Below, piece by piece: positions 14,260 to 41,487 of a stretch of 64,000 nt of DNA. This stretch comes from an uncultured Bradymonadales bacterium (lineage in GTDB: Bacteria > Myxococcota_A > Bradymonadia > JAFGEP01), in NCBI GenBank assembly GCA_964503485.1, contig CAZDBH010000002.1:508-64507 (forward strand). The letters run 5' to 3'. The position numbers and the translations under genes were made by a program. Numbering within the stretch: the first letter of the stretch is position 1; each line of letters opens with the position of its first letter. Under the pieces are notes generated by a model. That model was not told the origin of the DNA and did not search any database. It saw nothing but the letters and a program-made list of their open reading frames with translations.

Positions 14260-14316
14260 GCGCCTACAAAGATGAAGGCCGCTTAAAAGTCGAAGGCGGG
14301 GGGTAAGTCTTCTTCT

Positions 14317-14583
14317 ATGTCGAAAGAAGACGCCCCGGCCAAGAAGAAGGCCGCATCAAAGCCGAAAGCCAAGGCGGGTGGGAAAGCGGCAGCCAAGTCG
14401 AAACCTGCCACGAAGGCAAAGCCTGGCTCAAAATCGAAGCCGAGCAAAAAAGTTCAACCCGACGATAGCGCCAAGGCCGATCCTGACCGCGAAGACGATG
14501 CAAACAAGGAAGCGCTCGACGCATATCTGGACGGATCCGATCGCCAACCTGCTGATTCTGACAACCGAGACGAGTTGAGCTGA
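14317..14583 (+). CDS. Small Lys/Ala-rich histone H1-like protein (or a decayed extension of the TatB tail).
   Basis: MSKEDAPAKKKAASKPKAKAGGKAAAKSKPATKAKPGSKSKPSKK. In the same frame as the upstream TatB, separated only by TAG and TAA. Its stop overlaps the tatC ATG (tgatATG). Confidence 0.4.
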   Translation: MSKEDAPAKKKAASKPKAKAGGKAAAKSKPATKAKPGSKSKPSKKVQPDDSAKADPDREDDANKEALDAYLDGSDRQPADSDNRDELS

Positions 14584-14584
14584 T

Positions 14585-15427
14585 ATGGACGCCCCTGAAC
14601 CCGTCATCCAGCAAAAAATGCCCTTCCTGGAGCATCTGTCAGAGCTTCGCTGGCGAATACTGTGGTGTTTGGCGTCGATTGTCGTCGGTTTCATAGTCGC
14701 TTGGACCTTCCACACCGAGATCTTCAATTGGCTCATGGTGCCCTACGAGGACGCAGTCCGCTCCCTACCGGACCCCCTCCACACGGCCATCTTGAGCACA
14801 ATACCCGAGAGTGGGGTGGCGTTCGAGCCGCAGCACGTCCCGATATTGACCTACAAATCGCTGATCGAGCCCTTCTTCGTCTATTTGAAGACGGCGCTCC
14901 TGGCGGGTCTATTTCTCGCCATCCCCGTCATCTTCTGGCAGCTCTGGCTGTTTATCTCGCCGGGCCTGTACAAGAAGGAACGTAGGCTAGCGGCGCCGTT
15001 TATTATCGGTAGCACCCTGTTCTTTCTGTTGGGCGCATCGTTTTGCCGTTACTTCGTCATGGAGCCGGCCTGCAAAGTGCTGATGTCAATCGGTGCCCGA
15101 AACACTGAACCTCTCATCATGATGCAGGACTACTTCGGGCTCATGTCCCGCTTCCTGCTCGTGTTTGGGGCCGTTTTCGAGATGCCGATTATCATCGGGT
15201 TCCTGTCCGTTCTGGGCTTTGTGACCCACAAGACCCTGATTAAGCACTGGAAAGTCGCATTGGTCTGCTCGTTCATCATGGGGGCGATGCTGACACCACC
15301 AGATCCATTCACGCAGACCGCTCTCGCGGTGCCGCTGATCCTCCTGTACGGGATCAGTATCGGCGTAGCGTACGTATTCAGCACCCGAAGGCGGAAAAAG
15401 GTCGAAGCCTCTGTCTCGCTGGATTGA
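14585..15427 (+). CDS. tatC: Sec-independent protein translocase TatC.
   Basis: LEHLSELRWRILWCL N-terminus, six TM segments, FISPGLYKKERR motif. 280 aa. Confidence 0.9.
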   Translation: MDAPEPVIQQKMPFLEHLSELRWRILWCLASIVVGFIVAWTFHTEIFNWLMVPYEDAVRSLPDPLHTAILSTIPESGVAFEPQHVPILTYKSLIEPFFVYLKTALLAGLFLAIPVIFWQLWLFISPGLYKKERRLAAPFIIGSTLFFLLGASFCRYFVMEPACKVLMSIGARNTEPLIMMQDYFGLMSRFLLVFGAVFEMPIIIGFLSVLGFVTHKTLIKHWKVALVCSFIMGAMLTPPDPFTQTALAVPLILLYGISIGVAYVFSTRRRKKVEASVSLD

Positions 15428-15448
15428 CGCCGCCCGAGGCGATTCACC

Positions 15449-17977: not shown

Positions 17978-18144
17978 TCTCTAACCTGACTGCCCCCACA
18001 AGCTACCGTGAGTGTCAGGACCATGAGCGCACCTAAACAGAACGCGTTGGGCAAGCTGAAGTTCATGTCTCGTAGGCTGCCCTGCGAGCGAGGGATTGTC
18101 AAAGGTGACGAGCGGTCGCGTCGGCAACGTTACCTGGCTGACAG

Positions 18145-20724: not shown

Positions 20725-20835
20725 ATCAAGTTTAGTAGCGGAAAGAGACGGCGTCGCCAGCCCTAATTGCGCTGCAGCGTAGAAGCGCGATGCACTGGCT
20801 GTTTCGAGAAGGTGTCGGTCGAAGGGAATGATCGT

Positions 20836-20847
20836 CCCCGCGCGGGG
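20836..20847 (-). terminator. Perfect GC palindrome ccccgcgcgggg 20 nt downstream of the 600-aa gene stop. Candidate intrinsic terminator, weak U-tract.
   Basis: Seen directly in the sequence. Followed on the minus strand by ACGAUCAUUCCCUUC. Confidence 0.25.
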
Positions 20848-20865
20848 CGGGGAACTCAGTCAGAC

Positions 20866-22668: not shown

Positions 22669-22837
22669 TTTTACAACATCCGAAATAAGGAAAACAAATG
22701 GACCATTGTTTCACTGGGGTGACGTCAGTATCATGCGGCGATTTTTGGTCGTCCGACGATGCCGGCGCACGGTGTTGCGGTTTATAGCAGACGCGCCAGG
22801 CGTTTCAAAGGAAAAGTAACAGCGAGTACCGCGGACA

Positions 22838-24085
22838 TTGTTTTACGAGACTTTCATTTCTACACGCTACCTCAGGGCGACCCGCAAGTCGTTTTTGAGC
22901 ACCATCACGCTGATCAGTGCGGTCGGGGTGATCCTCGGTGTAACCGCTCTGACCGCAGTTGTCAGCGTCACCGGTGGGTTCCAAACCGCCTATCGAGAGC
23001 GGGTCCTCGGCGTGTATCCGCACATCATGTTGTTGCCGACCTCGAGCCATTTTCCCGAATACCGCGAGGTGATGGCCGCCATTGATGGCGTCGACGGTGT
23101 GAGCAGCGTGAACGCCTTCGTGCGGCAGCCCCTCATGGTCTACACCGAGTCAGCGCGAGCCATGATTGTGGCCCGCGGAATGGATATGGAGTACCTCACC
23201 GGCGAGGCGGGGCTCGCCGAGTATGTCACCGAAGGTGAGCTCTCGGACCTCGCGTACGATCCCTATTCGCCCGACGAGCAGCTCCCCGGTCTCTTTTTGG
23301 GGAGCGAACTGGCTCGTACCCTCCAGGCGGAGATAGGGACTGAGGTGACAGCGGTCTCTCACCTACGCGGAACAGGCTTTGCCCTTGGGCCGAGTCAGAT
23401 GGCGCCAACCAGCGTTCGCTTCAGGGTCGCTGGTGTCTTCGAGGTCGGCTACAACGACTTCGACAGTCACTTGGCACTCACTGACCTGCGGACCGTCCAG
23501 CACTTTCTCAACCGGGGCGATGTGGTGACGGGAATCGATGTCCGGGTGGACGACATCTTCGCGACTGCCGCCATCGGTTCGACGATAACGGGACGCCTGC
23601 CAGCCGGTGGCTACCAAGCCCTTGGATGGGATGAAATCCACCGAAATCTCTTTCGAAGTCTCGCGCTCCAGAAGCTCGCGCTGAGCCTCATCATGATCAT
23701 CATCGTTGTCGTAGCCAGTTTCAACATCGTGAGTACCCTCGTGATGATGGTGCTCGACAAGACCAAAGAGATCGCCATTCTCAAGTCGCTCGGGGCGAGC
23801 AGGGGCGGGATCAGACGGATATTCATGACCCAGGGGCTCATCATCGGGACCGTGGGTACGTCGCTGGGCCTCGCGATGGGCTACGTCGTCTGCCGTCTCG
23901 TCGAACGCGTCGACTTCGGGCTCGATCCCAGCGTCTACAAGATCTCCTCTCTACCCGTGGACATGCAGCTGCACGAGTTCCTGTTCGTGGCCCTGATCTC
24001 TGTTTGCATCAGTATCGCCGCGACGGCGGTGCCGGCCGTTCTAGCGGGTCGCATCAAGCCAGTAGACGGTCTGCGATACGACTGA
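22838..24085 (+). CDS. Lipoprotein-releasing system permease, LolC/LolE (FtsX-like) family.
   Basis: N-terminus FISTRYLRATRKSFLSTITLISAVGVILGVTAL matches the LolC/E start (F..RYLR...F.S.IS.ISM.G...GV.AL). Large periplasmic loop and C-terminal FtsX-type 3-TM module. No adjacent LolD ATPase. Confidence 0.75.
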   Translation: MFYETFISTRYLRATRKSFLSTITLISAVGVILGVTALTAVVSVTGGFQTAYRERVLGVYPHIMLLPTSSHFPEYREVMAAIDGVDGVSSVNAFVRQPLMVYTESARAMIVARGMDMEYLTGEAGLAEYVTEGELSDLAYDPYSPDEQLPGLFLGSELARTLQAEIGTEVTAVSHLRGTGFALGPSQMAPTSVRFRVAGVFEVGYNDFDSHLALTDLRTVQHFLNRGDVVTGIDVRVDDIFATAAIGSTITGRLPAGGYQALGWDEIHRNLFRSLALQKLALSLIMIIIVVVASFNIVSTLVMMVLDKTKEIAILKSLGASRGGIRRIFMTQGLIIGTVGTSLGLAMGYVVCRLVERVDFGLDPSVYKISSLPVDMQLHEFLFVALISVCISIAATAVPAVLAGRIKPVDGLRYD

Positions 24086-24145
24086 TCTCGGCGTCGCCGT
24101 AGTCCGGACAGCCAACCTTGTGAGTAGGGAACGGAGCCTGGGCTG

Positions 24146-27100
24146 CTACCCGAGGCGCCTAGCTCTCATGTAGTGACCCTGGCTCGCGGCCAGCTGGACC
24201 GCCCGAGGAGTAGCATCTCGCCCTTTGCCGACCAGTCGCTCGGTCTCGGCGATCAACCAGGCGATATAGAGTGTATCGCCAGTCCGACCAGCGTCGTCAG
24301 CTAGTTTGAGCGAGGCTTCGAGCGGGGTCATTTGATCCGCCAGAGATTTGGGGTTGCGAAGCGCTCCCAGAGCGTGGGTCAGCGAACGCAAACGGTTTTC
24401 CACTGGCTTGGAGTCCAGCCGCCTAGCCAAGGCGCTAAACTCACTCAGACGAGAGGCCGCTTCCTTGGCGCGATCGGGAACAAGCAGCGACTCAACGATC
24501 CAGGGAGCGAGGCGCAAACAGAAGTCGTTGAGGCCTGCGTTGTGGGCCGCCACGAACGCTTCGTTCAACAGCTCAGCAGCCGACTCATTTTCGCCCGAGG
24601 CCAAGGCCAACAGTCCTTTGAGCTGTGCCGCGACGATGTCTCTGCCTTCCACCGGGCAGGCAGAGAGCAGTGACAAGACGGTCTCTCCGGTGCCCCTTCG
24701 GATTTCACAGCTGCCCAGTCGTGAAACAACCGCCACCCCTAACTGGGGACTACAGCGAACGACTGAAATAGCACGGACAGCGTCACTGTAGAGCTTTGAG
24801 GCTCGCTTCAGGTGGCCCTGAAAGTCATGCCACTCGCCCAGCGCCAGGGCCACACGTCCCACCGAACGGGCCGACGACGATCCAGATGCGTCCACTGACA
24901 GGCAAGCGATCGTGTCCGCGACCCCGTCCTCCTCTCCCGTCCGCAGAGCCAAGCGGAGCTGCTGCGACATAACTTGAAGGATTGCGTCTTCAGCCTTTAG
25001 CTCGGCACTCTGAGTGGCCAGTCTACCGAGGGCCTCGCGGACGCGGGCGATTCGGTGCGCGCTGAGGCCGTGGTCGACCTGCTCAATGCGGATTCGAACC
25101 GCCTGCGAGGAGTGTCTTCGACCGCCCGACATCGTTCGGGCCACAGAGCCGAGATAGTTGATTGCCAAGTCGGTGAAACCGGAAAACGCCAACAAGGAGG
25201 CGTGTTCTTTGGCGAGACTCTCGGCTCTATCCAAGTCGCCTACGTTGGCGAACAGTCGGGCAGCACGGGGTTTGCGAAGAACGGACCCTGGTCCTGGACC
25301 GGCCAGCCGCGTGGCAAGCCTGCGGGTCATTCGGAGCTGTTCTCTGTGGTCAGGCTCGCCGCCGAAGGCCTCGTAGACCGTTCTGAGGCCGATGGACCAA
25401 TGATCGACCGGCAGTTCGACCAGCAGATGCATACCCGCAAGGCGTCGGCACACCCGATGAACAGTCCCAGCCTCGTCTCCCACCAACCGCGCAAGCGAGA
25501 CACTGGGTATCGCGATTCGGGTGGCCGCCAACAGGGCCAGGATTCGAGCGGGCAGGGGTTCCAAACCCAAGGGAAGCCAGTCGAGACGCTCGGGACGTTT
25601 GCTCGGCGCTCGACCGAACTTCTGGCGGAGGGCTTGGTCCACCGCCAGCTGCGGACTGCCAGCCGCAACTCGCACCGCCTCGTCCGGCACCTCCTCATCG
25701 GTGATGTGGCCAATCAGCTTGCGAATCGCTACTTCTTCGAGGGGAGGCAACACAATCGTCGACCGTATGCTCTCGTCGGCTGCTCGGCCCAGCTGGGTCA
25801 GCAGACCCCGATTGCTGCTCGCGATGACGAGCAGCAGTGGCACCTTCTCGGAGGCAGCCAGCGCGCCGTGAATCAGCTCGAGTGACATCACGTCCGCTAG
25901 CTCGGCCGAATCGATGAGAACGGCTAACGCACTCTTTTCACATTCTGTCGTCGACTGAATCAGCGAGCCGATGCTGGTTCGAGCCTCTCGCATCGACGTG
26001 TTTTGCAGATTCATCAGCGATTTGAGGGCGGCACGAGTGGTGCTGTCGCCGATTTTGCTCCGCTCGAGGCCAGTTGCTAGCTCAGCGCCCGGGTCTGGAC
26101 CCCAGGAGAGGTCCTTGCCGGTGGTAATGAAGCTGAGTAGGTCGGCCATACAGCTGTACGGGTGGGCCGCCGAGTCCGAGTGAGGCTGAATCAAAAAGGC
26201 CCTGACGCCGCTCTCGTTCAGCTTCGAATGGGCAACTCGCAGCAAATGCGTCTTACCGCTACCGCGAGTTCCGCTCACAAACACAACCTGCGAAGCGCCC
26301 TTGCCCACCTTCTTGGAGGCCTCCACGATCAGATCGAGTTGCTCCTCGCGGCCGTTCGATTCCAGCAGTTCCTCGGCCTGATCGCGGAGCCGAAGCACGA
26401 AAAGCTCGCCCGAGGGCGGGCCGCTCCCGTCGACTCCCCATAAATCGTTTGTGGTGACGGCCTCGATCGCTCCGAGACCGGGATCGGACGTGAAGGAGCC
26501 GGTACCGATTTGGCTCGCGAGCATGCCCGAATACACGACAGACGTGCTCAGCTCGATGTCGCCCACATCTTCCAAAAACCGAGCCAGGGCTCTGGCTCCC
26601 ACATCCGGATGGCGAGCGTGCAAGTACGACACGATGCGGTCATAGAGGAGGTTCAGATCGACCCGGCGGTCGGCCGGGTTTTTGGAAAGCATGGCCTCGA
26701 CGATCTCTCGAAACGGCTCGGGCACACTTCGAAGAAGTTCCTCACCGACGTCACCCTTTTTCGCGTTCTTGCGTACCCGACTCGCTGTGCTGTCCGCGTA
26801 GGGATGGACTCCCGAGCACACCTCGACGATGTGAAGCCCCAGCGAGAAGAAGTCACTTCTCGGATCGGCCCATCCCCCCTCAGCCACCTCGGGGCTGGCA
26901 TAGCCGAATGCTCGAAGGACACCATCTTTCTCACTGAGGTCGAGCTCCTCTATTGGCCGAAACACACCGAAGTCCGCGACCTTGATTTCGCCCTGGACGC
27001 CGATGAGGACGTTGCGCGGATGCAAGTCGCAGTGGGCGAGTCGCACCGGCTCCAGTGAATTGCCAGCCGAGCGCCGGTGGGCATACTCTACGGCCTTCAC

Positions 27101-28546: not shown

Positions 28547-29863
28547 CTAGAAATCCTGCCTCAACTCGAGACCGACATTCCAGATCGTACCTCCAGTCTC
28601 CATTGCCCCCTGTTCGAGGGCCCCGTGCTCGGTGTCTTTGACTGTATTGCGCGGAACGAGCTGGTTGAGTTGAAGATGAAAGTCAATCGTCATGGGGAGT
28701 TCGGCCACTTGCAAGGGATCGGGGAAGGTAGCACCGCCGCCCAGAGAGAAGACGTTCACGCTGTTGTCCATCATCGACGTGTAGCCGACCTGATCAGGTA
28801 GAATTGCCGGGCGGTGGAAATAGCCGGCCCGCGTCACGAATATGTCATTGATCTGCCACTCGATTCCAAATCGCGGAATGACCACGTCTTGTGCACCCAA
28901 GTTCAGATCCGTTGATTGAATATCGAAAAGGGTACTCACGGTATCCTCTTCGGGCCGCAGCTCTTCGTCAGTTACAACGGCGCTGATTTGTGCGGTGGGA
29001 TCGGGTGCAGAGCTCCACAGTGCGATGGTGAGATCGGCCGCGAGCAGGATGTCCGGTTCGGCGATTCGGTAGGCCGTCCCCACATTGACCTGTCGCGGCG
29101 AGTACAGCGTGGTTCCCGCGACGTCCAGAGTGAGGGTCCCAACGCCTTCGAAATCAAAGAGAATCGGAAGGTCGTAGGTGAGTTCCAATTCGTCCCTGAA
29201 GGTGACGCCGAGTTCGAAGGGCCCGTAGCCGGTGCTCAGACCGACAATGGGACCAGTGGTGCCGGATAGTTCGACGGTCAGCGATCGCGATTCCATACGG
29301 CGGTCAATGACGTCGCCGGTGACATTCACTCCGGAGTCGAGAGCCGCCAGGATCTGAACACCAACCCCGATGCGGAGCCAGTCGGTAATCCGAAATCCGA
29401 TCGCGGGAGCGATGACCAGATGGTCGGGCAGACCTTCGTACATGTAGAAAAAGGGTCTGGCAGGATCGATGGCTTCCAACCGCGTCAGTTCGATGAGCGG
29501 AACAAAGAGAGCGAATCCGATTGAGACCCGGTAGTCGATTCGACCCCCCAAGGGGAAAACAAAACCGAGACTCAAACCCATGTTTTGAGAGGGCAGTTCG
29601 GGCTCCGCTTGGTCGGGTACATCCGATTCGATGTACATCTGCGGATTGACGTAATTGGTCGCCAATCCGAAGTGGGTGTTGCGACGCAACACGAGATTTG
29701 CGGGATTGTAATAGATGGCTGCGTGGTCTCTAGCCGCTGCGCCTTGGGCGCTTCCCATAGCAGTGGCGCGCGAGCCAAACCCGAACACATCGAAGGGGGA
29801 GGCCTGGGCAGAACTGGACGAAACCAATAGGACTGCAAAAACGAGTGAGGAGAGGTACCGCAT
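28547..29863 (-). CDS. Outer-membrane transport protein, FadL/OmpP1/TodX-like family.
   Basis: Signal peptide, N-terminal hatch region with a conserved NPA motif (AAIYYNPANL), beta-strand-rich body, C-terminal aromatic (…LRQDF). The family assignment is tentative. Confidence 0.45.
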   Translation of the reverse strand: MRYLSSLVFAVLLVSSSSAQASPFDVFGFGSRATAMGSAQGAAARDHAAIYYNPANLVLRRNTHFGLATNYVNPQMYIESDVPDQAEPELPSQNMGLSLGFVFPLGGRIDYRVSIGFALFVPLIELTRLEAIDPARPFFYMYEGLPDHLVIAPAIGFRITDWLRIGVGVQILAALDSGVNVTGDVIDRRMESRSLTVELSGTTGPIVGLSTGYGPFELGVTFRDELELTYDLPILFDFEGVGTLTLDVAGTTLYSPRQVNVGTAYRIAEPDILLAADLTIALWSSAPDPTAQISAVVTDEELRPEEDTVSTLFDIQSTDLNLGAQDVVIPRFGIEWQINDIFVTRAGYFHRPAILPDQVGYTSMMDNSVNVFSLGGGATFPDPLQVAELPMTIDFHLQLNQLVPRNTVKDTEHGALEQGAMETGGTIWNVGLELRQDF

Positions 29864-29866
29864 CGC

Positions 29867-31150
29867 CTAAAAGCTGAGCAGGAGCCCCACATTCAAGTCG
29901 AGCTGGACGGACAGTTCATCGAAGAGCACCATCGAGTAGACATCGACGAGGAGGCCCACATTGTCGGTGAAGAAGTAGGCGTAGCCGAAGCCGACACCGC
30001 CGTGAAACGGGCCTTCTCTGGTTGTGTCGACAAACTCAACCGTGGGGCTGAGGTCGACGGTATGTCGGATGTGACCCCAACCGCCACCGAAGGAGGCGTA
30101 CATTCGGGTCGGTCCGTCGAGCAGGAAGTACCATTTCAGTTTGCCGCCGACGATGATTTCGAGCTCGACTCCGTTCTCGAGCAAGACAGTCTGAAGACGC
30201 AGGAAGGGACCAAACTGGAACGCGTCGGCAAAGTAGAAGCCGATATCGGCAAAGAAATGGAGTGGGGTTAGCGCAACACCCGGATTCAGGTCGACGCGCC
30301 CACCCATGACCAAGGGTTCGCCGGTGGCGAGTCCACCGCCAGAGCCGACCCCCAAGGCAATCGCGATGACTTCATTGATTGCGTTGCCGGTTTCTGGTCC
30401 ATCTCCGTCCAGAATGACCACGGTATGCGGGGCGTTCGGCGTGGCGCTGGTGGCCAGAATTCGGTCGTCGGGACCCACTGCCTGAAGGAAGTACTCGACT
30501 TGGAGCCCTGCATCCTCTGTGAAGCTGCCTGGAACCGTCGCGTAGAACTCCGTGGGGCTGCTCAACATCATATTCGAGAGATGGTACCGGGTCTGCCCGT
30601 GAGCTCTGTAACCCAACACGATTCGATGAACTCCGGCCCCGCCGGGAATGCTGGCGGTCACTGTCAGAGGTTGACCGGCCCGAACCGTAACGGGTGGGGC
30701 GTGGGTGAGTAGTTCTTCCGGTGGCTCGATCGTCTGATTGGGCACACGCTCCCGCGCGGCGGCGAGCAGAGCCTCAAGCTCGGGGTTCGTGTAGTAGGGA
30801 TTGAGAACGGCCTCAGGGGCCTCGAGCAGACCGTCAACGAACCGCTGAATCGTGATCTCGGGGTCCGCATACAGTGCGTGCTCAACGATACCCAACATCA
30901 TGTGGACATCGGCCAGGGCCTCGCCGTGGACCGCATTTTGCTCGGCGACACCGACCGCTTCTTCGAGAACTCGGACCGCATCTTCGAGCTGCAGCGTATC
31001 GTAGTGATCGAGCGACTGATCGACGAGCGCTTGAATCCGCTCCTCGGGCGTTGGGCTCTGGCCAAACGCCAGAGTCGGCGAGAGCACAATCAGAGCCCCG
31101 ATCAGCAACGTGACCGAAGTGAGGAGTCTATAACTTGAGACACATTTCAT
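29867..31150 (-). CDS. Hypothetical outer-membrane / secreted protein.
   Basis: Signal peptide (LLIGALIVLSPTLAFGQSP), Gly/aromatic-rich beta-strand C-terminal half ending …LLLSF. 3-bp gap to the downstream FadL-like gene. Confidence 0.45.
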   Translation of the reverse strand: MKCVSSYRLLTSVTLLIGALIVLSPTLAFGQSPTPEERIQALVDQSLDHYDTLQLEDAVRVLEEAVGVAEQNAVHGEALADVHMMLGIVEHALYADPEITIQRFVDGLLEAPEAVLNPYYTNPELEALLAAARERVPNQTIEPPEELLTHAPPVTVRAGQPLTVTASIPGGAGVHRIVLGYRAHGQTRYHLSNMMLSSPTEFYATVPGSFTEDAGLQVEYFLQAVGPDDRILATSATPNAPHTVVILDGDGPETGNAINEVIAIALGVGSGGGLATGEPLVMGGRVDLNPGVALTPLHFFADIGFYFADAFQFGPFLRLQTVLLENGVELEIIVGGKLKWYFLLDGPTRMYASFGGGWGHIRHTVDLSPTVEFVDTTREGPFHGGVGFGYAYFFTDNVGLLVDVYSMVLFDELSVQLDLNVGLLLSF

Positions 31151-31155
31151 TTGAG

Positions 31156-32286
31156 TTACTGCGCGACAATATGGAATTCAACACGGCGATTTGCAGCTCG
31201 ACCGTCAGCTGTCTCGTTCGTCTCGATAGGTGATTCTTCGCCGTGACCAACCGATGTGGTTCGCCCAGCGCTGATTCCCGCTCTAATCAAGTAGGACCGG
31301 ACGCTACCGGCGCGCTCATCGGAGAGGCGCAGGTTGTAGCGAGCCGATCCAGAGCTGTCGGTGTGGCCTTCTATGCGAAGCTCCATCCCCGGATTCGACG
31401 CGAGGATAGACACAATCTCGTCCAAGATTGGGTAGCTGTCAGGCAGAATATCCGACGAGTCATAGGCGAAGTGAATCTGCTCCGTGATTTCGATGCGATC
31501 GTCGTGAATGACGGTAAACTCGAGCTCGGGTTCGGGGTCATCCTCGGGACAGCCGTCCTCATCCTCGTCCCCATCGAAATCTTCGGGGTCGTTGGGGCAT
31601 TGGTCGTCGTAGTCGAGAACGCCGTCGCCATCGTTGTCTAGGTCCGGGCAGCCGTCCTCATCCTCGAATAGGTCGAAGTCCTCAGGATCGTTGGGACACT
31701 GATCCTCGAAGTCGTAGAGACCGTCGAGATCATTGTCTTCCTCGGGTCAGCCGTCCTCATCCTCAAAATCATCGAAGTCTTCTGGATCCAGCGGGCATAG
31801 GTCGTCGTTATCGAGGATCCCATCGCCGTCAGAGTCGGCTACGAAGTCGGGCCAACACTCCGGTCGGACATCGACGATCGCGGCCGCCGCATCGGCATTG
31901 ATGTGGGCGATCTCTAGGTGGTGCGTCGCTTCGAGATAGGAGCCCCGGTCGAGTTCGTAGTTTCCGAAATCGAGATTCGACTCGGCCATCGCGAGTTCAC
32001 GCTCGGCACAGCGATAAGCTGCCTCGCGAATCCGATCGAGGGTCGACCCAACGTAAAGCGCTTCGGCCTGCAGCTGTTTTCCAGATGCGCAGCCCGTTGT
32101 GGCCGTCGACAGGGCAGTTATCAAACCCAGCAGTCCCAGGATGACGACTGAAGCGTTGAGCTTCCAGTATGAAGCCGGCCCACTCTGCGAATGAACGACG
32201 ATGGGGCTGTGCACTGTATTCACCAACTGGGTTCGCACCAGATTCTCTCCATGTCTCCTGCAACTACGAGCCAGCGGAGACGCCAT
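31156..32286 (-). CDS. OmpA-family peptidoglycan-binding lipoprotein with thrombospondin type-3 (TSP3) Ca-binding repeats. The reading frame is continuous except for ONE in-frame TGA at 31747..31749 in place of a conserved Cys codon (either a pseudogene or recoding).
   Basis: Manual minus-strand translation in a single frame gives …CPLDPEDFDDFEDEDG*PEEDNDLDGLYDFEDQCPNDPEDFDLFEDEDGCPDLDNDGDGVLDYDDQCPNDPEDFDGDEDEDGCPEDD… then the OmpA C-terminal domain (LRIEGHTDSSGSARYNLRLSDERAGSVRSYL…NRRVEF). The track splits it into 31747..32286 and 31156..31425. Confidence 0.65.
31500..31860 (-). repeat. Tandem TSP3-repeat-encoding DNA repeats (units like gggcagccgtcctcatcctc).
   Basis: Near-identical ~24-nt units recur four times on the plus strand and encode EDEDGCP(D/E) on the minus strand. 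Confidence 0.6.
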
Positions 32287-32294: not shown

Positions 32295-32660
32295 CTATTC
32301 GCCCAGACCGTCGTCATCCAATCCCAAACCTGGAGCGTTCCTGTTGGGATTCGCAACCGCCCGCTCCAGAGCCGCTTCGGCCAACTCGCGGGCACGCTGT
32401 CCGTACTCTTCAGCGTGTTGGAAGTCGGAATACCCCCATTCTTCTTTGGCTTTCTCGAGATATTGAACTGCGCTCACATACTCGTATGTGGCGAACTCCT
32501 CCGCCTGCTCCATTTCTGCTGCCCGAACGGCGAGCTCGGCGTCTCGAATTGTGGGAGTCGAAATTACAGCCCCGCAAGCCCCTAAAAGGGTGACCATGCC
32601 GCAGAGGCACAGCACTGGGACGAAAAACGCTCTAACCATGTTCATACCCCATCGTCCCAA
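32295..32660 (-). CDS. Small lipoprotein, DUF4398-like (commonly partnered with OmpA-family proteins).
   Basis: Signal + lipobox (MVTLLGACGA). Helical AELAVRAAEMEQAEEFA…AKEEW content. Its stop lies 8 bp upstream of the OmpA/TSP3 gene. Domain assignment is from memory and tentative. Confidence 0.35.
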   Translation of the reverse strand: MGRWGMNMVRAFFVPVLCLCGMVTLLGACGAVISTPTIRDAELAVRAAEMEQAEEFATYEYVSAVQYLEKAKEEWGYSDFQHAEEYGQRARELAEAALERAVANPNRNAPGLGLDDDGLGE

Positions 32661-32873: not shown

Positions 32874-34835
32874 ATGTCCCGGCCCAAGGGGCTACTTGAA
32901 TATGTCGTGGTTTTTGAGAACGGACGACGTTCCGACCCGCTATCTCTGTCTACTCTCAGAGAGATGATATCCGGAGGCCTCATTGGTGAGGGCGACCGGG
33001 TCTCGAAGGACGGCTCCGAGGCATCTGAGTACTACCTGTTCGATGAACTCGTCGACCTGTGGGATGTCGAATCCGCGACCTTCGATATTGGTGGAGATCC
33101 CCGCGACGACGGGCCCATCCTGGCAAGTATCAGGACAGCTTCCTCTCCGCCACCCGTGCCGAGCAGGCAACCGGCCCCGCAGAGTCCCCAGGAAGAAGAC
33201 GAAGGCAGCACCTCGAACCTGGGAGTTCGGGCCGCACAGGACGTATTGACTGCGAGTCTCGGAGTCGAGTCCGGTGAGCCCCTGCCAGCCGAGACCGCGG
33301 CACTTCTGGACGACATTGCTTCGATGTTGGAATTCGAGATCGCAGATCTCGGCTCGGCACCCGCAGCGCCGCCAGTACAACCCGTCAGCCCGGCGCCGCT
33401 GCCCGCACCACCAGGTTTTGCTGGCTACGACGCCCTGTCGGATGATCTACTCGACCCGGTCACGATTCGTGACCTTCTGTTTGACGCATCGCTCTACACG
33501 GCACTGGCCGTCTCCTACGAAGCCACCGAACAAGAGCTGAACGAGGCCTATCTCACACGCGCCGAGCTGATCGCTCAGCGTCAACGAGTCATGACGACCA
33601 AGGACATCGACCAGGTCGCGGCCCTCGAAGATATTAGGCGCCTGATTTTCCAATCCTTCGAGTTTCTTCGCAACGACGCAAAGCGGACCGCCTATGATCG
33701 TGCAGGCCAGCGCTCGGGTTCTTTCAAACCGTCAGCCCAGGAGTTGGGGCTGACCAGAATGGACCCAGACTCGCAAGAGTTCAGGACCACTGGCACCTTC
33801 TCGAGCGCGAGCAGAATGGCGCTCAAAAACCGCACCAAGGGCGACATCACGCAGCGCCTCAAGCAGTTCACGACCGCCAGCTTGCCGCAGGTCAATCGCT
33901 CTCGTTTGAGCGGTTCGATGCCTGCCCTGAGATCGATCGATGATCCACTGCTCGGGCAAAACGCGGGGCCGCGAGTTTACACCGCGCCGCACAAGGCCCT
34001 CGAGTCGGGTGAGCTGTCCACCATCGGGCTGAGTGACGCCAAACTCTTCAAGGGTGAAGTACCCACCGACGCACGCGAGCGGGAAGAGCGGTCGAAAACC
34101 TCCGACAAGCCGAGGGCACACCGCCGCACCTTCGAAGCGCTTGATATCACCGGCGAGCAAGATGCTGTCCAGTGGGGTTCCCTAAGCCACCAGAGGGGGA
34201 CCGGCTTTCTACAGGCCGCACTCCTGACAGTCGGGCTTTGCCTTATCTCGATTGTGGTCGTCCTCACCACCGAATTGGGTGCGAACGAATTCGACTACAA
34301 CGGCCCCACCGAGTGGTTCTACGGCAGAAATGGGCTTCTGATCGTGGGGGCGATCCTCGCACTGATCGCACTCCGGAAGGAGTCCCCAATCGCACTCGGT
34401 TTTCGGCCTGCCATACTCTTTTCGATCCTGGCCGTGATGATCGGAGTCGCCCTCGGCTTTGTTGGCTCATTTGTAGCCCCGATTCGGATTGCCGAACCAA
34501 AACCGCTCTTAATCATGGGCGTCATCCTGCTCCAGGCCGTGGCTCACGAAACCTACTTCCGCGGCTTTGTGACCCGAGTACTACTCCTCGAAATGAAGAG
34601 CCCAATGGTGGCGGTTTTCACAAGCTGCTTCTTCTACGGTGTGTTCTATCTGACCTTCAGAAACGTCATGGTCCAAGAGGGTTTCTGGCGCATCTACTAC
34701 AGCCTCTTGCTCTACGGCTTCGGGCTGGGCGGTGTCTACGGATGGCTCTACTACAAGTCGAAGAGCGTCTGGCCGAGCTTCCTCGCTCATTTCCTGACCA
34801 TCATGGTCACGTTCCTCACCTCTAGAGTAGCTTGA
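32874..34835 (+). CDS. Multi-domain membrane protein: N-terminal DUF4339/GYF-like domain, a degenerate J-domain-like segment (no HPD), Pro-rich linker, and a C-terminal CPBP (CAAX-protease/Abi-like) intramembrane metalloprotease domain.
   Basis: C-terminal TM region with HETYFRGFV (EExxxR-like CPBP motif 1), FYGVFYLTFRN, and HFLTIM (HxxxN/D-type motif). The N-terminus VVFENGRRSDPLSLSTLREMISGG resembles DUF4339. 653 aa. Confidence 0.5.
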   Translation: MSRPKGLLEYVVVFENGRRSDPLSLSTLREMISGGLIGEGDRVSKDGSEASEYYLFDELVDLWDVESATFDIGGDPRDDGPILASIRTASSPPPVPSRQPAPQSPQEEDEGSTSNLGVRAAQDVLTASLGVESGEPLPAETAALLDDIASMLEFEIADLGSAPAAPPVQPVSPAPLPAPPGFAGYDALSDDLLDPVTIRDLLFDASLYTALAVSYEATEQELNEAYLTRAELIAQRQRVMTTKDIDQVAALEDIRRLIFQSFEFLRNDAKRTAYDRAGQRSGSFKPSAQELGLTRMDPDSQEFRTTGTFSSASRMALKNRTKGDITQRLKQFTTASLPQVNRSRLSGSMPALRSIDDPLLGQNAGPRVYTAPHKALESGELSTIGLSDAKLFKGEVPTDAREREERSKTSDKPRAHRRTFEALDITGEQDAVQWGSLSHQRGTGFLQAALLTVGLCLISIVVVLTTELGANEFDYNGPTEWFYGRNGLLIVGAILALIALRKESPIALGFRPAILFSILAVMIGVALGFVGSFVAPIRIAEPKPLLIMGVILLQAVAHETYFRGFVTRVLLLEMKSPMVAVFTSCFFYGVFYLTFRNVMVQEGFWRIYYSLLLYGFGLGGVYGWLYYKSKSVWPSFLAHFLTIMVTFLTSRVA

Positions 34836-34838
34836 GTC

Positions 34839-35165
34839 GTGCGCAAGTCGGGCTGGGTACTTCCGACGTTGCTACTGATTCCTCTACTGGCCTGGTCATG
34901 GCGCCAGCTGCGCTCAGACCAGCCGCCCTTGACCTTCACAACCGCCAGTATGCAAGTCGAACTGGGAACCAAAGAGCCGCAACCCGGCCTGCTCCAGTGT
35001 ACTCCCAGCGACGAGGTGCTCAGCACAGAGCTGGCGGCGCTACAATACGTCCACTTCTCAGGGCAGCCATGCGCCGAAGATAGGGGCACGCATGTGCTCG
35101 AAGAGTGGCTCGGTGGCAGGTTGCTCTGGAGTCCTGGCAATACGATACGAGTCGAGAGATGGTAA
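34839..35165 (+). CDS. Possible small secreted protein (GTG start).
   Basis: 108-aa ORF in the gap between the CPBP gene and lnt, with a hydrophobic N-terminus (WVLPTLLLIPLLAWSW). No similarity recognised. May be spurious. Confidence 0.25.
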   Translation: MRKSGWVLPTLLLIPLLAWSWRQLRSDQPPLTFTTASMQVELGTKEPQPGLLQCTPSDEVLSTELAALQYVHFSGQPCAEDRGTHVLEEWLGGRLLWSPGNTIRVERW

Positions 35166-36637
35166 GCCGTCTTCTGTGGGCCAGCATTGCCGGAATCCTA
35201 TTTGCCCAAGCCTACCTCCACTCGGCCCCCTTCGCTCTGGCCGGTGCAGTCGCTCTGGGACTTGCGCTGAGGCCTCCCTTCGACCGGAATTGGCGACGGC
35301 AGATAGCGAGAGTCTTCATCGTTCAACAAATCTGGATCGCCCTGCACGGTTGGGGGTTCCTGCACTACGGCTGGAGGCTATATGTCGCCACGCTCTTCTA
35401 CTTCGCGCTTTCCGGCGCCCTGCTGTCGATTCTGGTGATCGGTTTCGCCCGCAGGCCTCGGGTAGGCCCGCTGCGGGTGGCCGCAGCTTGGATGACGGTG
35501 GAAGCGCTCCACCAGGTCGGATCCTTCGGCTTCCCGCTTTTTTTGGGCGGGACCCAAATCGAAATGCCGTGGCGCACCTCGATGGGCGTTATCGGGGCTG
35601 TCGGCCTGAGTGGTCTGATTATCGGGTTGGGCGTCGCTGCCACCCGTGCTCGCATGTCGGCCCTTCGCTGGGCAGCAGCCCTCGTTGTGTTTTCACTCTT
35701 GGGTCTGTGGCAGCCCGGGATAGAAGAGGTTGGCGAATCACAGGATGTAGCGATTGTTCAGGGCGGTGTCCCCAGTTGGTTCTACCAGATCGTGGATGAC
35801 TCGGAAGCGGCTGCCTATCTTGTCGAGGACCACTATTTCGGGCTCGCCGAAGAGGCATTTGTCGGCGGTCCTGATCTCGTCCTGCTACCCGAAGCTGCAC
35901 TCCACCACGCAATTGCCCAAACTGGTGACTATTCGGTTGATCCATTGTTTCGAGCCTCGGACAACCCAGAGAACGCAACGACCCAGCTTTTGACTGGAGC
36001 CTATCGAGAGACCTGGGTCGGAGACGATCTGCGCCTCTACAACTCGGCCCTCCTGCTCGATGCGTCAGACAGCCGGCACCTAATCGCTGTGGTCGACAAG
36101 CGTCTGCTGGCCCCCGTCGTCGAGTCCCTGTTTACGCCAGGAACCGGTGATGGTCTGGTCGAGGCCCGCGCTATGACGATCGGCGTGCTCATCTGCTTCG
36201 AATCGATCTATCCCAGAATGGGCAGGCAAGTTGCGGAATCGGCGAGCGTGGTAGCGATTCTCACCAACGACGCGGGCTTTGTACGAGCTCCAGTGAGCCT
36301 CACGCACGCCCGCCAGGGTTGGAGCCGAGCGATCGAACTGGGACGGCCGATCGTACGCTCTGCCCAAGCAGGTATCTCCTTCATCGTCGACCACCGGGGA
36401 CAGATCCAGGCCCAGCTCGACTTCTTCGAGCAAGGTGTTCTGCGTGGAACGGTTCAACCCACCACTGGCTGGACCTGGTTTACCCTCTTCGGCTTCATGC
36501 TCGCGCCGGTTGCGGGGTTACTACTCTGCCTCTTCATCGTTCTGGGTGACCGCCGGTTTGGAAAGCCCGCGGCGGTAGAGCCAGCCGAGGAGGCCAAGGA
36601 TGAGGGCGTAGCCGACAAGGAAACTGGCGTACCCTGA
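35162..36637 (+). CDS. lnt: Apolipoprotein N-acyltransferase (Lnt).
   Basis: N-terminal polytopic membrane region followed by a CN-hydrolase (nitrilase) domain with the catalytic-Cys context IGVLICFESIYP. Length ~490-510 aa. The start is ambiguous (35105 or 35162). Confidence 0.7.
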   Translation, partial: VSRLLWASIAGILFAQAYLHSAPFALAGAVALGLALRPPFDRNWRRQIARVFIVQQIWIALHGWGFLHYGWRLYVATLFYFALSGALLSILVIGFARRPRVGPLRVAAAWMTVEALHQVGSFGFPLFLGGTQIEMPWRTSMGVIGAVGLSGLIIGLGVAATRARMSALRWAAALVVFSLLGLWQPGIEEVGESQDVAIVQGGVPSWFYQIVDDSEAAAYLVEDHYFGLAEEAFVGGPDLVLLPEAALHHAIAQTGDYSVDPLFRASDNPENATTQLLTGAYRETWVGDDLRLYNSALLLDASDSRHLIAVVDKRLLAPVVESLFTPGTGDGLVEARAMTIGVLICFESIYPRMGRQVAESASVVAILTNDAGFVRAPVSLTHARQGWSRAIELGRPIVRSAQAGISFIVDHRGQIQAQLDFFEQGVLRGTVQPTTGWTWFTLFGFMLAPVAGLLLCLFIVLGDRRFGKPAAVEPAEEAKDEGVADKETGVP

Positions 36638-37378
36638 GACGTTGTGCATCGGACCCATCGCAAGCTCGCTGCCTCCGTGCTCACCCAGAGTCGAAATCGT
36701 GGCGATTCGAGTGCCGTTCACAAGCAGTGAGAAGGGCAGGGCCAGAACAACCAGAACCAGAAGTTGGCGCTCGCGAATCCGGAAAATTAGACCGAGAAGC
36801 AAGGTGTACAACGACAGTGCTGCCAACGTGTTGACCCCACTGCATGTCTCATCGACTAGGTTGTAGAAGGTAGGGGTGAGTATCAGGAGGTCTTGCTTTT
36901 GTACCTCGAAACCGAGGACCGTCAACCACACACAGGCCACGTTCGCCGACAAGTGTTGCAGCATCAGCTCGAATCGGGCCATCCATCCTGTAGTTAGAGG
37001 CGCCATCAAAATGAGTGGCGTGAGCGGCAGTAGGTAACGCCCGAGCAGTTCGCGTCCGCCGACTAGCCCAACAGCTGCCCCGACGGTGAGCCAAAACCCC
37101 ACAGCCCCGACGATCGGTTCATCCAACACCCAGGCGAGGCAGTTGACGCACAGGGCCAGTAACGTTGCGACGACAAGGACGTGCGAGGAGGTGCGTGAGC
37201 GGGTTCGGTCGTCGTCGGTTCGAAAACGGATCCAACAGGCGACGCCGGCGATAATCGGCATCATTGCGCTGAACGAAACGTCGATGAGTTCGTTGCTTCG
37301 CCACCAACCGAGGAGGTCTGTCAGGAATGGGACAGTCGAAGCGATGAGGACTACTGCGAAGGCGAGCCGGCGCATCAT
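36521..37378 (-). CDS. Exosortase/archaeosortase-family transpeptidase-like membrane protein.
   Basis: 8-TM-type protein of 285 aa with the family's catalytic-Cys motif (DETCSGVNTLAALS), an NxxR motif (LLVNGTRIATI) and a downstream His (GEHGG). It starts 11 bp after the stop of the 1365-aa gene, so the two are co-transcribed. Its 3' end overlaps lnt by ~117 nt. Confidence 0.6.
   Translation of the reverse strand: MMRRLAFAVVLIASTVPFLTDLLGWWRSNELIDVSFSAMMPIIAGVACWIRFRTDDDRTRSRTSSHVLVVATLLALCVNCLAWVLDEPIVGAVGFWLTVGAAVGLVGGRELLGRYLLPLTPLILMAPLTTGWMARFELMLQHLSANVACVWLTVLGFEVQKQDLLILTPTFYNLVDETCSGVNTLAALSLYTLLLGLIFRIRERQLLVLVVLALPFSLLVNGTRIATISTLGEHGGSELAMGPMHNVSGYASFLVGYALILGLLGWLYRRGLSKPAVTQNDEEAE
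36550..36575. other. Imperfect palindrome ccgccgg-tttggaaag-cccgcggcgg inside the lnt / exosortase convergent 3' overlap (possible bidirectional terminator, or a sign that one gene end is mis-called).
   Basis: Seen directly. Both convergent ORFs read through it. Confidence 0.3.
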
Positions 37379-37389
37379 CCTCTCTCGCG

Positions 37390-40300
37390 TTAGTCAGCGC
37401 ACTCGCAGCTGTCGCTGCAGCTGCTGCACTCCCCAATATGGCCCGTATCACAGTCTTCGTTTACAGACCAAAGAACCTGGCCGGCCTTCGACTCGTCCTC
37501 TCCTTCACCCGAAGTCACTGCGCCGACTGTTCCACCGCAGGCATCGTCATTGATGAAGATCTTGTAATACGGGTTCGGGAAGCCGCCGCCATACGGATAC
37601 TGGCGTACCCGCACTTGGTAGTCGCCCGCCGGCAGGTCATAGAAAGCGAATTCACGGCCCGGGAAGTCCGCGACCGATCGCGACACCTGAGTCTCGCAGA
37701 CGTAGTGGTCGCTCTCTGGGTCCAATTCGGGCAGACAGGGGCAGTCCTCGTCCGCCGGGAAACCACACTCGTAAACAGTCTGGTCAATCCCATCCCGCAA
37801 CGGATCGGGATACAGTAGGGCAATCGCCTGGCCTGCTTCATCGAAGTGCCTGAGGTACAGTTCGATGTCGCCGCCTTCGGTGGTGAATGAGAACCAGTCA
37901 TCTTTGTCCCAGCTACAGAGCGAGCCCACGTGATCAGACGCGGAAGTTCCCGGCTCTAGAACACAGGTCTCGTCAGTACAACCGAGGTCGTTTGGTCCGG
38001 GATAGCGATCCCAATCTTCGGGCGTCAAATCCCACGGATCGTAACGTTCCGGCGGTGGACAGTCTCGCCCGCCCGCGCCGTTTACCTCGACCAAGATGTC
38101 GTAATCGGCCCCAGCCACGAGACTTCCCGCGTCGACCGTAAGCCGGTAGGTCGCTACAATCTTGCCCGCTGGGGCGTTGGCTGTCCCGTCGATGAGGATG
38201 TCGTAACAGGTGTTCGCTGACTCGCAAGCCGGTGTCACATCGACCCCGTACCGGAATTGATCGGAGCCTTCTCGGCCGAAGAAGACTTCGACTTTCTCGG
38301 CGTTATCCTCGGCGTCATCGCCGTTCATTCGAACGCGCACTGTATACCGGTCACCTTCGAGAAAACGTAGGTGGTAGACGTCTTCGTCGGAGGGACAAAT
38401 CACGAGATTATCAGCCGGCAAACATTCGCAGAACGCCGTGTCGTCGGTACCGCAGGTCGTCGTGAGGAACTCGCCGCAGCCGTCGCCCCAACCAGCCAAC
38501 AACGTGGCTCGGTGAAGCAGTTCTGGATGCTCGGAGTCGTTGGGCTCGAGTTCGTCATCCTCACAGGGCGTTTCAATGTAGTCGATCGTCAACGAGTAGG
38601 ACTCGCCGAGTACCGGGATGAGTTCATCATCGTCCGGGTTGCTGCTGGCGACCCGCACGAAATAGATGGCTGCTTCCCCGTCGACTGTGCCGCCCACTCG
38701 TTCGTAGATGGGTTCGTCGGTCAGAAGCACACCACTGGGCAGACCGGTTGTATCCATCTCGACCAACTCCCGATCCTCCCCGTCGAGTACCCATTCGTAG
38801 ATGGTCATTTCGAGGGCGTCGTCTTCCTGGAAGAGGGAGGCTTGCAGGAACCCTTCTGATGGGGCCCGGAAAATCTGGACCAGATAGAAATCCTCATCTA
38901 GATCCACGGAATCATCGACTACTGCTGGGCAGATGCGCGCTTCCTCGAAGGACGCGGTGGCAGGCCGACTCGGGATGATGAACTTGCTATCGGTCGGCAA
39001 GTCCTGGGCATTTTCTGGGGTATTGTTGTGTCGGTCGGCACCCAGCGCGATGCTATCATAGTAGTCTCGTTCACAGCGCGCCGTTCCCATCCCGCTCTCG
39101 AACCGAAAGGTGTAGGCCGCTTCTGCGCTCCCTCCGGGGATTTGCATACGGAAGTAGTACTCATCGGTGGCAGCCACGGACCGGTCCAGAATCCGGTCGT
39201 CTGTGTCGTCCAAGTCGGCCGGATTGTCCCAGGCGCCGGCAGAAACGATGGAGTCGGCTTCCAAATCGACACCCCCATCTGTACCCAAGTCCATTTGTAT
39301 TCCGGGATGACCGTCACGCGAATCAGTGACCGCTGTCAGGGTTTGACCGGCAAAGAGCACCATGCTGAAGAAGTCCACGTCGCCCGTGCACATGGTGAGG
39401 TCGGTGAAACTGCGGTCGACCAGGCGGCCGGCTGAGCCCAGAGGTGTAGCAGAAATCGTGCTGTTGTTCACCTCGAGAGGGTCTGCTTCGCAGAGGAACG
39501 GGCGGTCGAGCAGCACTTCGAGTGAGTAGTCGACGCACTCGAGACCGACCGTGAAGACTTGAACGAAATAGAGTTCGCTTTCGGGCACGAGGTAATCGTT
39601 AACCTGAACGTCGGTCGGTACTTCGGAATCGGTCGGTCGGAACACCACGTCCCCACCGTTGTTGAAAAAGGACATCGCTATGAAGCCCTCCGATTGCGCG
39701 TGCACCGATATGCGGTCGCCGGCGTTGAGATACATGACGTAGTGGTCGAAATCGGCGCCGGTTGACGCGGTAGCATCGGCACACCAGCTGTCCTCAGTGT
39801 CGTCACATGGCCTCAGATCAGTTGAGCCGGTGCAGTCCCGGAAGCTGACCACGGCGTCGCCAGAGTAGAATGGAATACAGGTAGCCGTAGAGCGGGTATC
39901 GTCGCGAATCACGTCCGTCTCGAGGGCATCGAGACACCCGCTCTGGCATCGGCCGGTGAGTGGATTGCAGGATTGACCGTCCGGGCAACTGTCCTCGGTT
40001 TCGTCGCTCTCTGGCGTACAGTCGACTTCACATTCTGGGGTCGAACAATGCGTACCCAGCGGGCACTCCTCATCTGCGACGCAGCCGCACTGATCTGTCG
40101 CGACCGAGCAAACCTGCCCGTCGGGGCAGTGGCACTCGTCGCCGTCACAGCCAGGTATGCAGCGCTGCAGTGTCGGTGAGCAGAATTCGCCAAGCGGACA
40201 CTCGTCGCAGGCTCCGTCCGGGTCGCAGCGCGGGATCCCGCAGTCACGGGTTTCGGGATCGCATATGAGTTCGTCGAAACAGGTGTCCTCGTCGGCCTCT

Positions 40301-41487
40301 GTTTCCGGATCGTCCGGTAAGCAGCCGTCCTCACAAAACTCACCGTTGCAGTACAACCCGTTGTAGTCGCCGCCATCCCAACAGTCTTCGTCAGTGGCGC
40401 ACTCCTCAGCGCAGCACACATGATCGGGGCAGCAGTGGGTGTCCTTTCCGCACTCGCCCGGTTTACAGCCCGGCGAGCAGACCGGATTGTCGAGCTCCAG
40501 GTCGCAGTACGTTCCGAACGGGCAATCCGCGTCTCCGTGGCAGCCGTCGATACAGGTGTGCGTGGCCAGATCGCACAGCGTCCCGGGCCGACAGGTATCT
40601 GACCCATCGTTGCGGATTCGGCATCCAGGCTGGCACGTCTCGGTCGACTCCTCGCAGTAGAACGCGCTGATCCTCCCGTCGTCGTTGCAAAACGCATCAC
40701 ACGTTTCTGGATCGTCGTCTTCGGCGCAGGTGCACGGTGTCGCCTCACAGGAGTGCGACTCTGTGTCGCATTGCAGGCCGCTACCACAATTGTCCGGTTC
40801 GCTTCGGCAGCCCTCTAGGCAGACGTCCAAATCAGGATCGCAATAGAAGCCCTCTAGGCAGATTTCGTCACCGCGGCAGGCACTACCCTGGCATCGTCGA
40901 GAGACCTCGTCGCAGACTAAGGGCACCTCCCCAACGGGCGCGATTGGGCAGTTATTGGGCTCAATCCGGCAGCCTTCCTCACAGCCCGACTCAGGATCGC
41001 AGTATTGGTGATCCTCGCAGTCGTCATCTTCTTCACAACCAGCAACGCATTCCCTCGAGTTTGGGCTACAGTGAAAATCGTCTTCGCAGGTATTGGGATA
41101 GAGGTCGCAGTCACCGCAGTTGTCGGGATCGACCCGACAACCGGGCTCGCACTCTCCGTCGTCGCAGTATTGACCCGCGGCGCAATCTTCGTTCTCCGTC
41201 GCGTCGGTGCAGCCCGATCGTTCGTCCACGGTGTCAGGAGTTACGTCTACATCGCCCGAGTCAGGAATATCCATGTCCCCCGCGTCGGTCGGTGGGCGAA
41301 CACACAAACCAGCGTCGTCACAAACAAACGGTGCCGAGCAGTTGCATTCGAAGCCCGCGTCGTTGGTTGGCGGAGTATCGCAGTCGCAGGCCTGGAACCA
41401 AGCTAACGTGAGCGGGATGGCGAGGACCAGGAATCGGGCCCTGATCTGTTCGGATACCGAACGGGATCCGTCTCGTCGCATGTGCAC
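37390..41487 (-). CDS. Giant (1365 aa) secreted Cys-rich repeat protein: ~10 N-terminal Cys-rich modules (C..GCR…C..G..CD) followed by multiple PPC (pre-peptidase C-terminal)-like beta-sandwich domains.
   Basis: Signal peptide (LVLAIPLTLAWFQAC). Repeats such as EGCRIEPNNCPIAP, EGCRSEPDNCGSGLQCD, PGCRIRNDGSDTCRPGTLCD. C-terminal half with DxD(F/W/Y)(F/Y) PPC signatures (GDVDFFSMVLFAGQTLT, DEDFYLVQIF, KDDWFSFTTEGGDIELYL). Confidence 0.7.
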   Translation of the reverse strand: MHMRRDGSRSVSEQIRARFLVLAIPLTLAWFQACDCDTPPTNDAGFECNCSAPFVCDDAGLCVRPPTDAGDMDIPDSGDVDVTPDTVDERSGCTDATENEDCAAGQYCDDGECEPGCRVDPDNCGDCDLYPNTCEDDFHCSPNSRECVAGCEEDDDCEDHQYCDPESGCEEGCRIEPNNCPIAPVGEVPLVCDEVSRRCQGSACRGDEICLEGFYCDPDLDVCLEGCRSEPDNCGSGLQCDTESHSCEATPCTCAEDDDPETCDAFCNDDGRISAFYCEESTETCQPGCRIRNDGSDTCRPGTLCDLATHTCIDGCHGDADCPFGTYCDLELDNPVCSPGCKPGECGKDTHCCPDHVCCAEECATDEDCWDGGDYNGLYCNGEFCEDGCLPDDPETEADEDTCFDELICDPETRDCGIPRCDPDGACDECPLGEFCSPTLQRCIPGCDGDECHCPDGQVCSVATDQCGCVADEECPLGTHCSTPECEVDCTPESDETEDSCPDGQSCNPLTGRCQSGCLDALETDVIRDDTRSTATCIPFYSGDAVVSFRDCTGSTDLRPCDDTEDSWCADATASTGADFDHYVMYLNAGDRISVHAQSEGFIAMSFFNNGGDVVFRPTDSEVPTDVQVNDYLVPESELYFVQVFTVGLECVDYSLEVLLDRPFLCEADPLEVNNSTISATPLGSAGRLVDRSFTDLTMCTGDVDFFSMVLFAGQTLTAVTDSRDGHPGIQMDLGTDGGVDLEADSIVSAGAWDNPADLDDTDDRILDRSVAATDEYYFRMQIPGGSAEAAYTFRFESGMGTARCERDYYDSIALGADRHNNTPENAQDLPTDSKFIIPSRPATASFEEARICPAVVDDSVDLDEDFYLVQIFRAPSEGFLQASLFQEDDALEMTIYEWVLDGEDRELVEMDTTGLPSGVLLTDEPIYERVGGTVDGEAAIYFVRVASSNPDDDELIPVLGESYSLTIDYIETPCEDDELEPNDSEHPELLHRATLLAGWGDGCGEFLTTTCGTDDTAFCECLPADNLVICPSDEDVYHLRFLEGDRYTVRVRMNGDDAEDNAEKVEVFFGREGSDQFRYGVDVTPACESANTCYDILIDGTANAPAGKIVATYRLTVDAGSLVAGADYDILVEVNGAGGRDCPPPERYDPWDLTPEDWDRYPGPNDLGCTDETCVLEPGTSASDHVGSLCSWDKDDWFSFTTEGGDIELYLRHFDEAGQAIALLYPDPLRDGIDQTVYECGFPADEDCPCLPELDPESDHYVCETQVSRSVADFPGREFAFYDLPAGDYQVRVRQYPYGGGFPNPYYKIFINDDACGGTVGAVTSGEGEDESKAGQVLWSVNEDCDTGHIGECSSCSDSCECAD

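Follow-up and report, generated by a model that had tools for sequence, protein, structure and literature searches.

A private in-frame TGA in an OmpA/TSP3-repeat lipoprotein gene is most likely an artefact of one metagenome assembly

A single in-frame TGA interrupts an OmpA-family lipoprotein gene at a conserved cysteine codon in the stretch of 64,000 nucleotides that was analysed here (the window). This TGA is a private singleton of one assembly in a nearly clonal population, and it is most likely an assembly or base-calling artefact. In the reading that we prefer, a single-base error (TGC to TGA) would have arisen during the sequencing or assembly of an internally repetitive gene, and the true gene of the organism would carry TGC and encode an intact OmpA-family lipoprotein with a Cys at this position of the thrombospondin type 3 (TSP3) repeat, as it does in the other assemblies. 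Recoding of the UGA is effectively excluded. The gene itself is an ordinary OmpA/TSP3-repeat lipoprotein gene of a type that is common in Myxococcota/Bradymonadia-like metagenome-assembled genomes (MAGs), and it holds no new biology.

RESULTS

The interrupted gene and its surroundings

The features discussed below are listed in Table 1. The TGA is codon 164 of the OmpA/TSP3 gene when the GTG is taken as the first codon, and the minus strand around it reads gag gat gag gac ggc TGA ccc gag gaa gac. The third base of this codon (31747) is A on the coding strand and T on the plus strand. No other in-frame stop is present between 32286 or 32238 and the TAA at 31156..31158, and the codon occupies the conserved Cys position of a TSP3-type repeat. 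The initial annotation was therefore right to describe a sole TGA at a conserved TSP3 cysteine, and it also gave the right sequences for the two repeat copies further downstream, gac ggc TGC ccg gac in one and gac ggc TGT ccc gag in the other. The other five of the six equivalent repeat cysteines are encoded by ordinary TGC or TGT codons.

The start that had been assigned to the gene, 32286, proved to be slightly off. The ATG at this position is not conserved, and frame-breaking indels relative to L001, a contig of a related organism, are located between 32286 and the GTG at 32238. Gene starts called in relatives are either the equivalent of this GTG, as in the best homologue of the protein search (P0001), giving a gene of 360 codons, or a later GTG (the 352-aa calls P0140 and P0141).

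The read-through translation begins with a signal peptide that contains a lipobox-like motif (...TTGC), followed by a helical DUF4398-like N-domain, three Asp-rich TSP3-type repeat pairs with six Cys positions in total, and a C-terminal OmpA peptidoglycan-binding domain. The latter was detected by the OmpA profile PF00691 at residues 273-367 of this translation (E 2.5e-22, 79.5 bits against a cut-off of 27.2). The TSP_3 profile PF02412 gave no match for the gene product at E <= 0.01; the Asp-rich DxDxDGxxDxxDxCP motif is visible by eye, and precomputed PF02412 matches are present on many homologues of the protein.

It had also been proposed that the gene heads an operon. A DUF4398 lipoprotein gene is located directly upstream, which makes the OmpA gene the second of four. 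The gaps between the second, third and fourth genes measure only 3-5 nt. A scan of GTDB genome contigs with the 427-aa protein encoded by the third gene found no relative. A protein search with it gave a 100% identical entry on an NCBI contig of 70,216 bp, from which the window comes. Adjoining the operon is an envelope-biogenesis gene cluster, the arrangement of which is kept in L001. This cluster comprises a 653-aa protein with a C-terminal Rce1-like/CPBP protease domain, an apolipoprotein N-acyltransferase-like gene, and an exosortase EpsH gene, and the 1,365-aa protein adjacent to the EpsH gene gave no Pfam match.

Elsewhere in the window, a 2,283-aa protein carries a PPC (pre-peptidase C-terminal) domain and a weak match to a Por secretion-tail-like domain, which is internal and not C-terminal. 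A 437-aa UDP-glucose dehydrogenase is also encoded. The region between 52.2 and 64 kb was considered as an 'ORF desert', which might have indicated many broken genes, but this description was rejected, since the region consists of one giant plus-strand open frame of more than 3,806 codons, which runs off the window end. Codon periodicity is constant over approximately 11 kb of this frame, and it has no Pfam match at E <= 1e-5.

Table 1. Positions of the features discussed in the text (window coordinates)
Feature	Position	Strand	Basis or remark
Error-like patch in the TatA/B-family gene (13678..14583)	14246..14318	+	16 private substitutions in 73 nt, two in-frame stops
FadL/Toluene_X-like outer-membrane channel, 438 aa, operon gene 4	28547..29863	-	
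427-aa protein, operon gene 3	29867..31150	-	No Pfam match; start 5 nt past the OmpA stop
OmpA-family lipoprotein gene, 360 codons	31156..32238	-	GTG start 32238 by homology with P0001/L001
Repeat-3 counterpart of the mutated stretch, GGCTGTCCCGAGGATGAC	31537..31554	-	Sequence comparison of repeats
Second private substitution, 9 nt downstream of the first	31738	-	C>A on the coding strand (G>T on the plus strand); GAA (Glu) vs GAC (Asp) in all others
In-frame TGA	31747..31749	-	
DUF4398 lipoprotein gene, operon gene 1	32295..32660	-	
Envelope-biogenesis gene cluster	32874..41487		
Exosortase EpsH gene	36521..37378		
2,283-aa protein with PPC domain	45334..52185	-	
Giant open frame	52580..64000	+	

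The TGA is private to one of four assemblies

Three independent metagenome contigs, which come from different samples and assemblers, represent the same population as the window. L005 (JGI 3300008954) is 99.96% identical to the window over 12.1 kb, L006 (ENA ERZ23498677) 99.86-99.96%, and L007 (JGI 3300007512) 99.91%. At 31747, the coding-strand base is C in all three, giving TGC, versus A in the window, and thus the TGA allele is found in one assembly of the four. The same picture is obtained with the protein records. The cluster of P0001 contains the truncated 179-aa ORF of the window itself (P0139, NCBI), two JGI proteins (P0140 and P0141) and an ENA protein (P0142), and the latter three differ from the read-through translation by 1-3 residues besides the stop position, where they have Cys.

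Only 5 differences separate the window from L005 over the 12.1 kb, all of them nonsynonymous or nonsense, and with L001 as outgroup the window state is derived for at least 4. The TGA is accompanied by a second private substitution close by (Table 1). Further along, an adjacent dinucleotide change at 39054..39055 is nonsynonymous and replaces ER in the 1365-aa protein of L005 by DS in the window, and a nonsynonymous change at 36129 gives L in the window versus P in L005 in the Lnt-like protein. The window state is derived at 39055 and 36129 by comparison with L001, and 39054 is ambiguous.

Private nonsynonymous differences, one or two per contig, are present in L006 and L007 as well, and some of these may be true micro-diversity. 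Of note, the 427-aa gene is called as 451 aa in L006, where an N run and approximately 80 nt of unrelated sequence are inserted (L006:3501-3592). This insert is a scaffolding artefact, and a reminder that every one of these assemblies has local defects.

Orthologues have Cys at the site and the gene has been under purifying selection

A protein search recovered intact full-length homologues, the best of which, P0001, shows 91% identity. Its contig, L001, is syntenic with the window over approximately 21-41 kb and has TGC at the site. Together, L001-L003 represent a relative that is approximately 80% identical in DNA (82% over the OmpA gene), and all three have TGC. In an alignment of orthologous proteins that takes in Persicimonas caeni and Bradymonadales/Myxococcales MAG proteins, with identities down to 51%, the stop column is occupied by Cys in 15 of 15. 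The initial annotation had suggested a comparison with orthologues and had stated that TGC at this position would make the observation trivial; TGC or Cys is what the 15 orthologues and the three 99.9% identical conspecifics have.

Between the window and L001, with a dS of approximately 1.3-1.5, dN/dS was 0.024 downstream of the stop, compared with 0.007 in the mature part ahead of it. The part behind the stop has thus been subject to strong purifying selection for essentially the whole divergence of the two, and has been coding until now. The low downstream value implies that any inactivation is very recent, or is not real.

Private changes in the window cluster at internal repeats

Repeats 1 and 3 of the OmpA gene have a 30-nt stretch in common in which only two positions differ, C/C in the one versus T/T in the other. 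The two private A's of the window (31735..31752 region) fall exactly on these two positions. The chance of such a coincidence is roughly 1/435 to 1/45, and we found no mechanism for it. Gene conversion from repeat 3 was considered and rejected, since this would yield T/T and not A/A. Another idea, that IUPAC ambiguity codes (Y) had been turned into A, is unsupported, because the other private differences are not single-letter on one strand, and it is also opposed by the 179-aa ORF that was called on the NCBI contig, indicating that the TGA is really in the record.

A second and far more conspicuous cluster of private changes is located in the Lys/Ala/Ser-rich repeat tail of a TatA/B-family gene, where the substitutions are mostly G>T on the plus strand (Table 1). 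Beside this patch one 72-nt repeat unit is missing in the window (14222..14318 region). The gene is intact in 5-7 other conspecific assemblies, and past the two stops in the patch the same frame runs on to a C-terminus identical with that in these assemblies. The region from 14.2 to 25.4 kb was compared with the conspecific contigs L008-L015, and immediately after the patch the window is 100% identical to L008 over 14320..25427 (11.1 kb). A patch with 22% divergence and stops in the middle of 100% identity is not plausible biology. It indicates that the contig is locally mis-assembled or of low quality where genes contain internal repeats.

The private changes are also unevenly distributed over the strands. 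Among the 21 substitutions that only the window has, 15 lead to T and 3 to A when read on the plus strand (11 G>T and 3 C>A), an asymmetry with a two-sided binomial p of approximately 0.0075, and the TGA itself is a G>T change on this strand. Miscalls at the level of reads are expected to leave such an imbalance between the strands, and fixed double-strand mutations are not.

Artefact versus recent nonsense mutation

The initial annotation had left three options, a sequencing error, a young nonsense mutation, and recoding as selenocysteine, of which the first two remain. We judge it probable that the TGA is an artefact and not a rare allele that really exists. The lesion is private, and the same assembly contains another lesion that looks non-biological; it is because of this demonstrable error-like patch elsewhere in the contig that error is favoured over recent mutation. 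The two private changes only 9 nt apart, in a region with so few differences from L005 and on the very positions that separate repeats 1 and 3, also point to an error, and so do the strand asymmetry and the fact that all 5 differences from L005 are nonsynonymous or nonsense, with a derived window state for at least 4. On the other side, well-covered short-read assemblies seldom contain consensus errors, and a comparison with L008 shows the contig to be free of errors over 11 kb. Moreover, an enrichment in nonsynonymous changes is also expected of very recent real polymorphisms.

It is possible, although rather unlikely, that the TGA is a real and very recent strain-specific nonsense mutation, which would make the gene a young pseudogene. 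The stop is present in the sequence as given, and the intact orthologues together with the downstream dN/dS of 0.024 would then indicate a very recent inactivation. The private differences in L006 and L007 suggest that there is strain micro-diversity in the population, and G:C>T:A is also a natural class of mutation, caused by oxidative damage. What argues against such an allele is that none of the three independent conspecifics carries the lesion, that a second private change lies next to it, that the same contig has a patch of obviously non-biological appearance, with 16 substitutions in 73 nt and two stops, and that the private changes are strand-asymmetric.

A real allele would encode a truncated pre-lipoprotein of 163 residues, in which the OmpA domain and all but one of the three TSP3 repeat pairs would be missing. 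Some 590 nt of the mRNA would be left untranslated, with possible polarity on the two tightly coupled downstream genes. The longest in-frame restart, a TTG at 31425, gives 89 aa without a signal peptide and with an incomplete OmpA domain. No termination context known in E. coli is weaker than UGA followed by C, and it is conceivable that near-cognate read-through of UGA-C, at a level of a few percent, would produce some full-length protein. We consider it highly improbable that this is a genuine one-strain allele of which the protein is completed, either by UGA-C read-through with Trp or Cys, or by selenocysteine insertion without a canonical SECIS element. If true, the strain would tune the dosage of a full-length outer-membrane tether versus a truncated lipoprotein.

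No allele-specific SECIS element and no change of the genetic code

The proposal that UGA is recoded as selenocysteine by SelB and Sec-tRNA via a downstream hairpin, resulting in a variant TSP3 repeat with Sec for Cys, derives its appeal from the position of the codon. All homologues have Cys opposite to it, and coding sequence is conserved on either side, which is a classical search criterion for selenoprotein genes. In addition, a hairpin is formed when the 50-101 nt behind the UGA are folded. It starts 14 nt past the codon, and the spacing of its apical loop is within the range of bacterial SECIS elements. However, this hairpin is no more stable than shuffled sequence, with z-scores of -0.27 to -1.09 relative to dinucleotide shuffles, 79/200 and 22/200 of which fold as well. 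The apical loop, UCUAC, contains no G. A scan for a geometry like that in published descriptions of bacterial SECIS elements required a loop of 3-14 nt at 16-37 nt from the UGA, at least 4 bp in the upper stem, and a G as one of the first two loop bases. At the UGA, it gave no candidate within 4 kcal of the minimum free energy (MFE). The same scan returned chance candidates at 4 of 8 ordinary Cys codons of the OmpA gene.

Importantly, what hairpin there is does not depend on the UGA. An equivalent one is formed by the TGC allele of L001 (z -1.69), and through the hairpin stretch L005-L007 differ from the window only at its two private bases and, in L007, at one further base of its own (31702). 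The bSECIS-like hairpin that the initial annotation had envisaged is therefore not specific to the UGA allele. Since conspecifics with 99.9% identity have TGC, no SECIS can have co-evolved with the UGA. The Cys concerned belongs to a set of six equivalent cysteines in the repeats of an exported protein and would not be a redox-active site.

Searches for the machinery agree with this. In the 64-kb window there is no tRNA, tRNA-Sec included, and no SelA/SelB/SelD-type domain among the proteins scanned. Rfam returned only chance snoRNA-like noise for the locus at E <= 10, and nothing for the whole window at gathering score. Scanning JGI metagenome contigs with a TGA-fixed degenerate pattern and with a lineage-specific TGN pattern gave no match, although JGI contigs of this population are present in another collection. 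A search of the literature on selenocysteine in Myxococcota yielded nothing useful. Thus, UGA aligned with Cys and coding conservation downstream of it were both found, whereas a SECIS hairpin and conservation of the UGA in close relatives, which a selenoprotein gene should also show, were both absent, and we regard selenocysteine insertion as extremely improbable.

The least probable reading of all, that UGA is a sense codon in this organism (a reassignment of the code-4 or code-25 type), has nothing more than the single in-frame TGA in its favour and is refuted by stop usage: TGA terminates 10 of 29 window genes, in a sequence with a GC content of 59%, and occurs in frame once in the 16,448 codons of these genes and not at all in the further giant open frame.

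DISCUSSION

The biological importance of the TGA is small, and its value is a practical one. One base that is private to a metagenome-assembled contig is enough to create a textbook selenoprotein signature, in which an in-frame UGA replaces a conserved Cys between conserved flanks, and independent assemblies of the same population settle such a question quickly. The analysis also flags the contig for local error patches at internal repeats, by which the OmpA and the TatA/B-family genes are both broken. Neither gene should be annotated as a pseudogene, or as recoded, without a check of the reads.

The observations resemble most closely the consensus or base-calling errors and collapsed repeats of short-read metagenomes, with a private singleton that is absent from independent assemblies, a clustered change in an internally repetitive gene, a strand-asymmetric spectrum dominated by G>T, and a second patch in the same contig with a collapsed repeat unit and multiple stops. 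They differ from these in that the remaining comparable part of the contig is error-free. With a young pseudogene or nonsense allele of an OmpA-family gene, the window shares a single disabling substitution in an intact and strongly constrained gene with intact orthologues, but there is no second lesion or relaxed constraint, and the allele is found in one assembly only. Bacterial selenoprotein genes, such as fdhF with its UGA and in-frame SECIS, likewise have UGA at the Cys of homologues and coding conservation on both sides. Unlike in those genes, the hairpin found here is neither significant nor specific to the allele, conspecifics do not share the UGA, no Sec machinery was found in the window, and the Cys is a structural one in an exported repeat protein. 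Finally, the OmpA/TSP3 proteins of Myxococcota/Bradymonadia MAGs and of Persicimonas caeni have the same architecture as the protein described here, including the DUF4398-like N-domain, and their genes follow the same order of DUF4398 gene, OmpA gene, 427-aa protein and FadL-like protein; in contrast to the window, the OmpA/TSP3 genes of all these relatives, P. caeni included, are uninterrupted.
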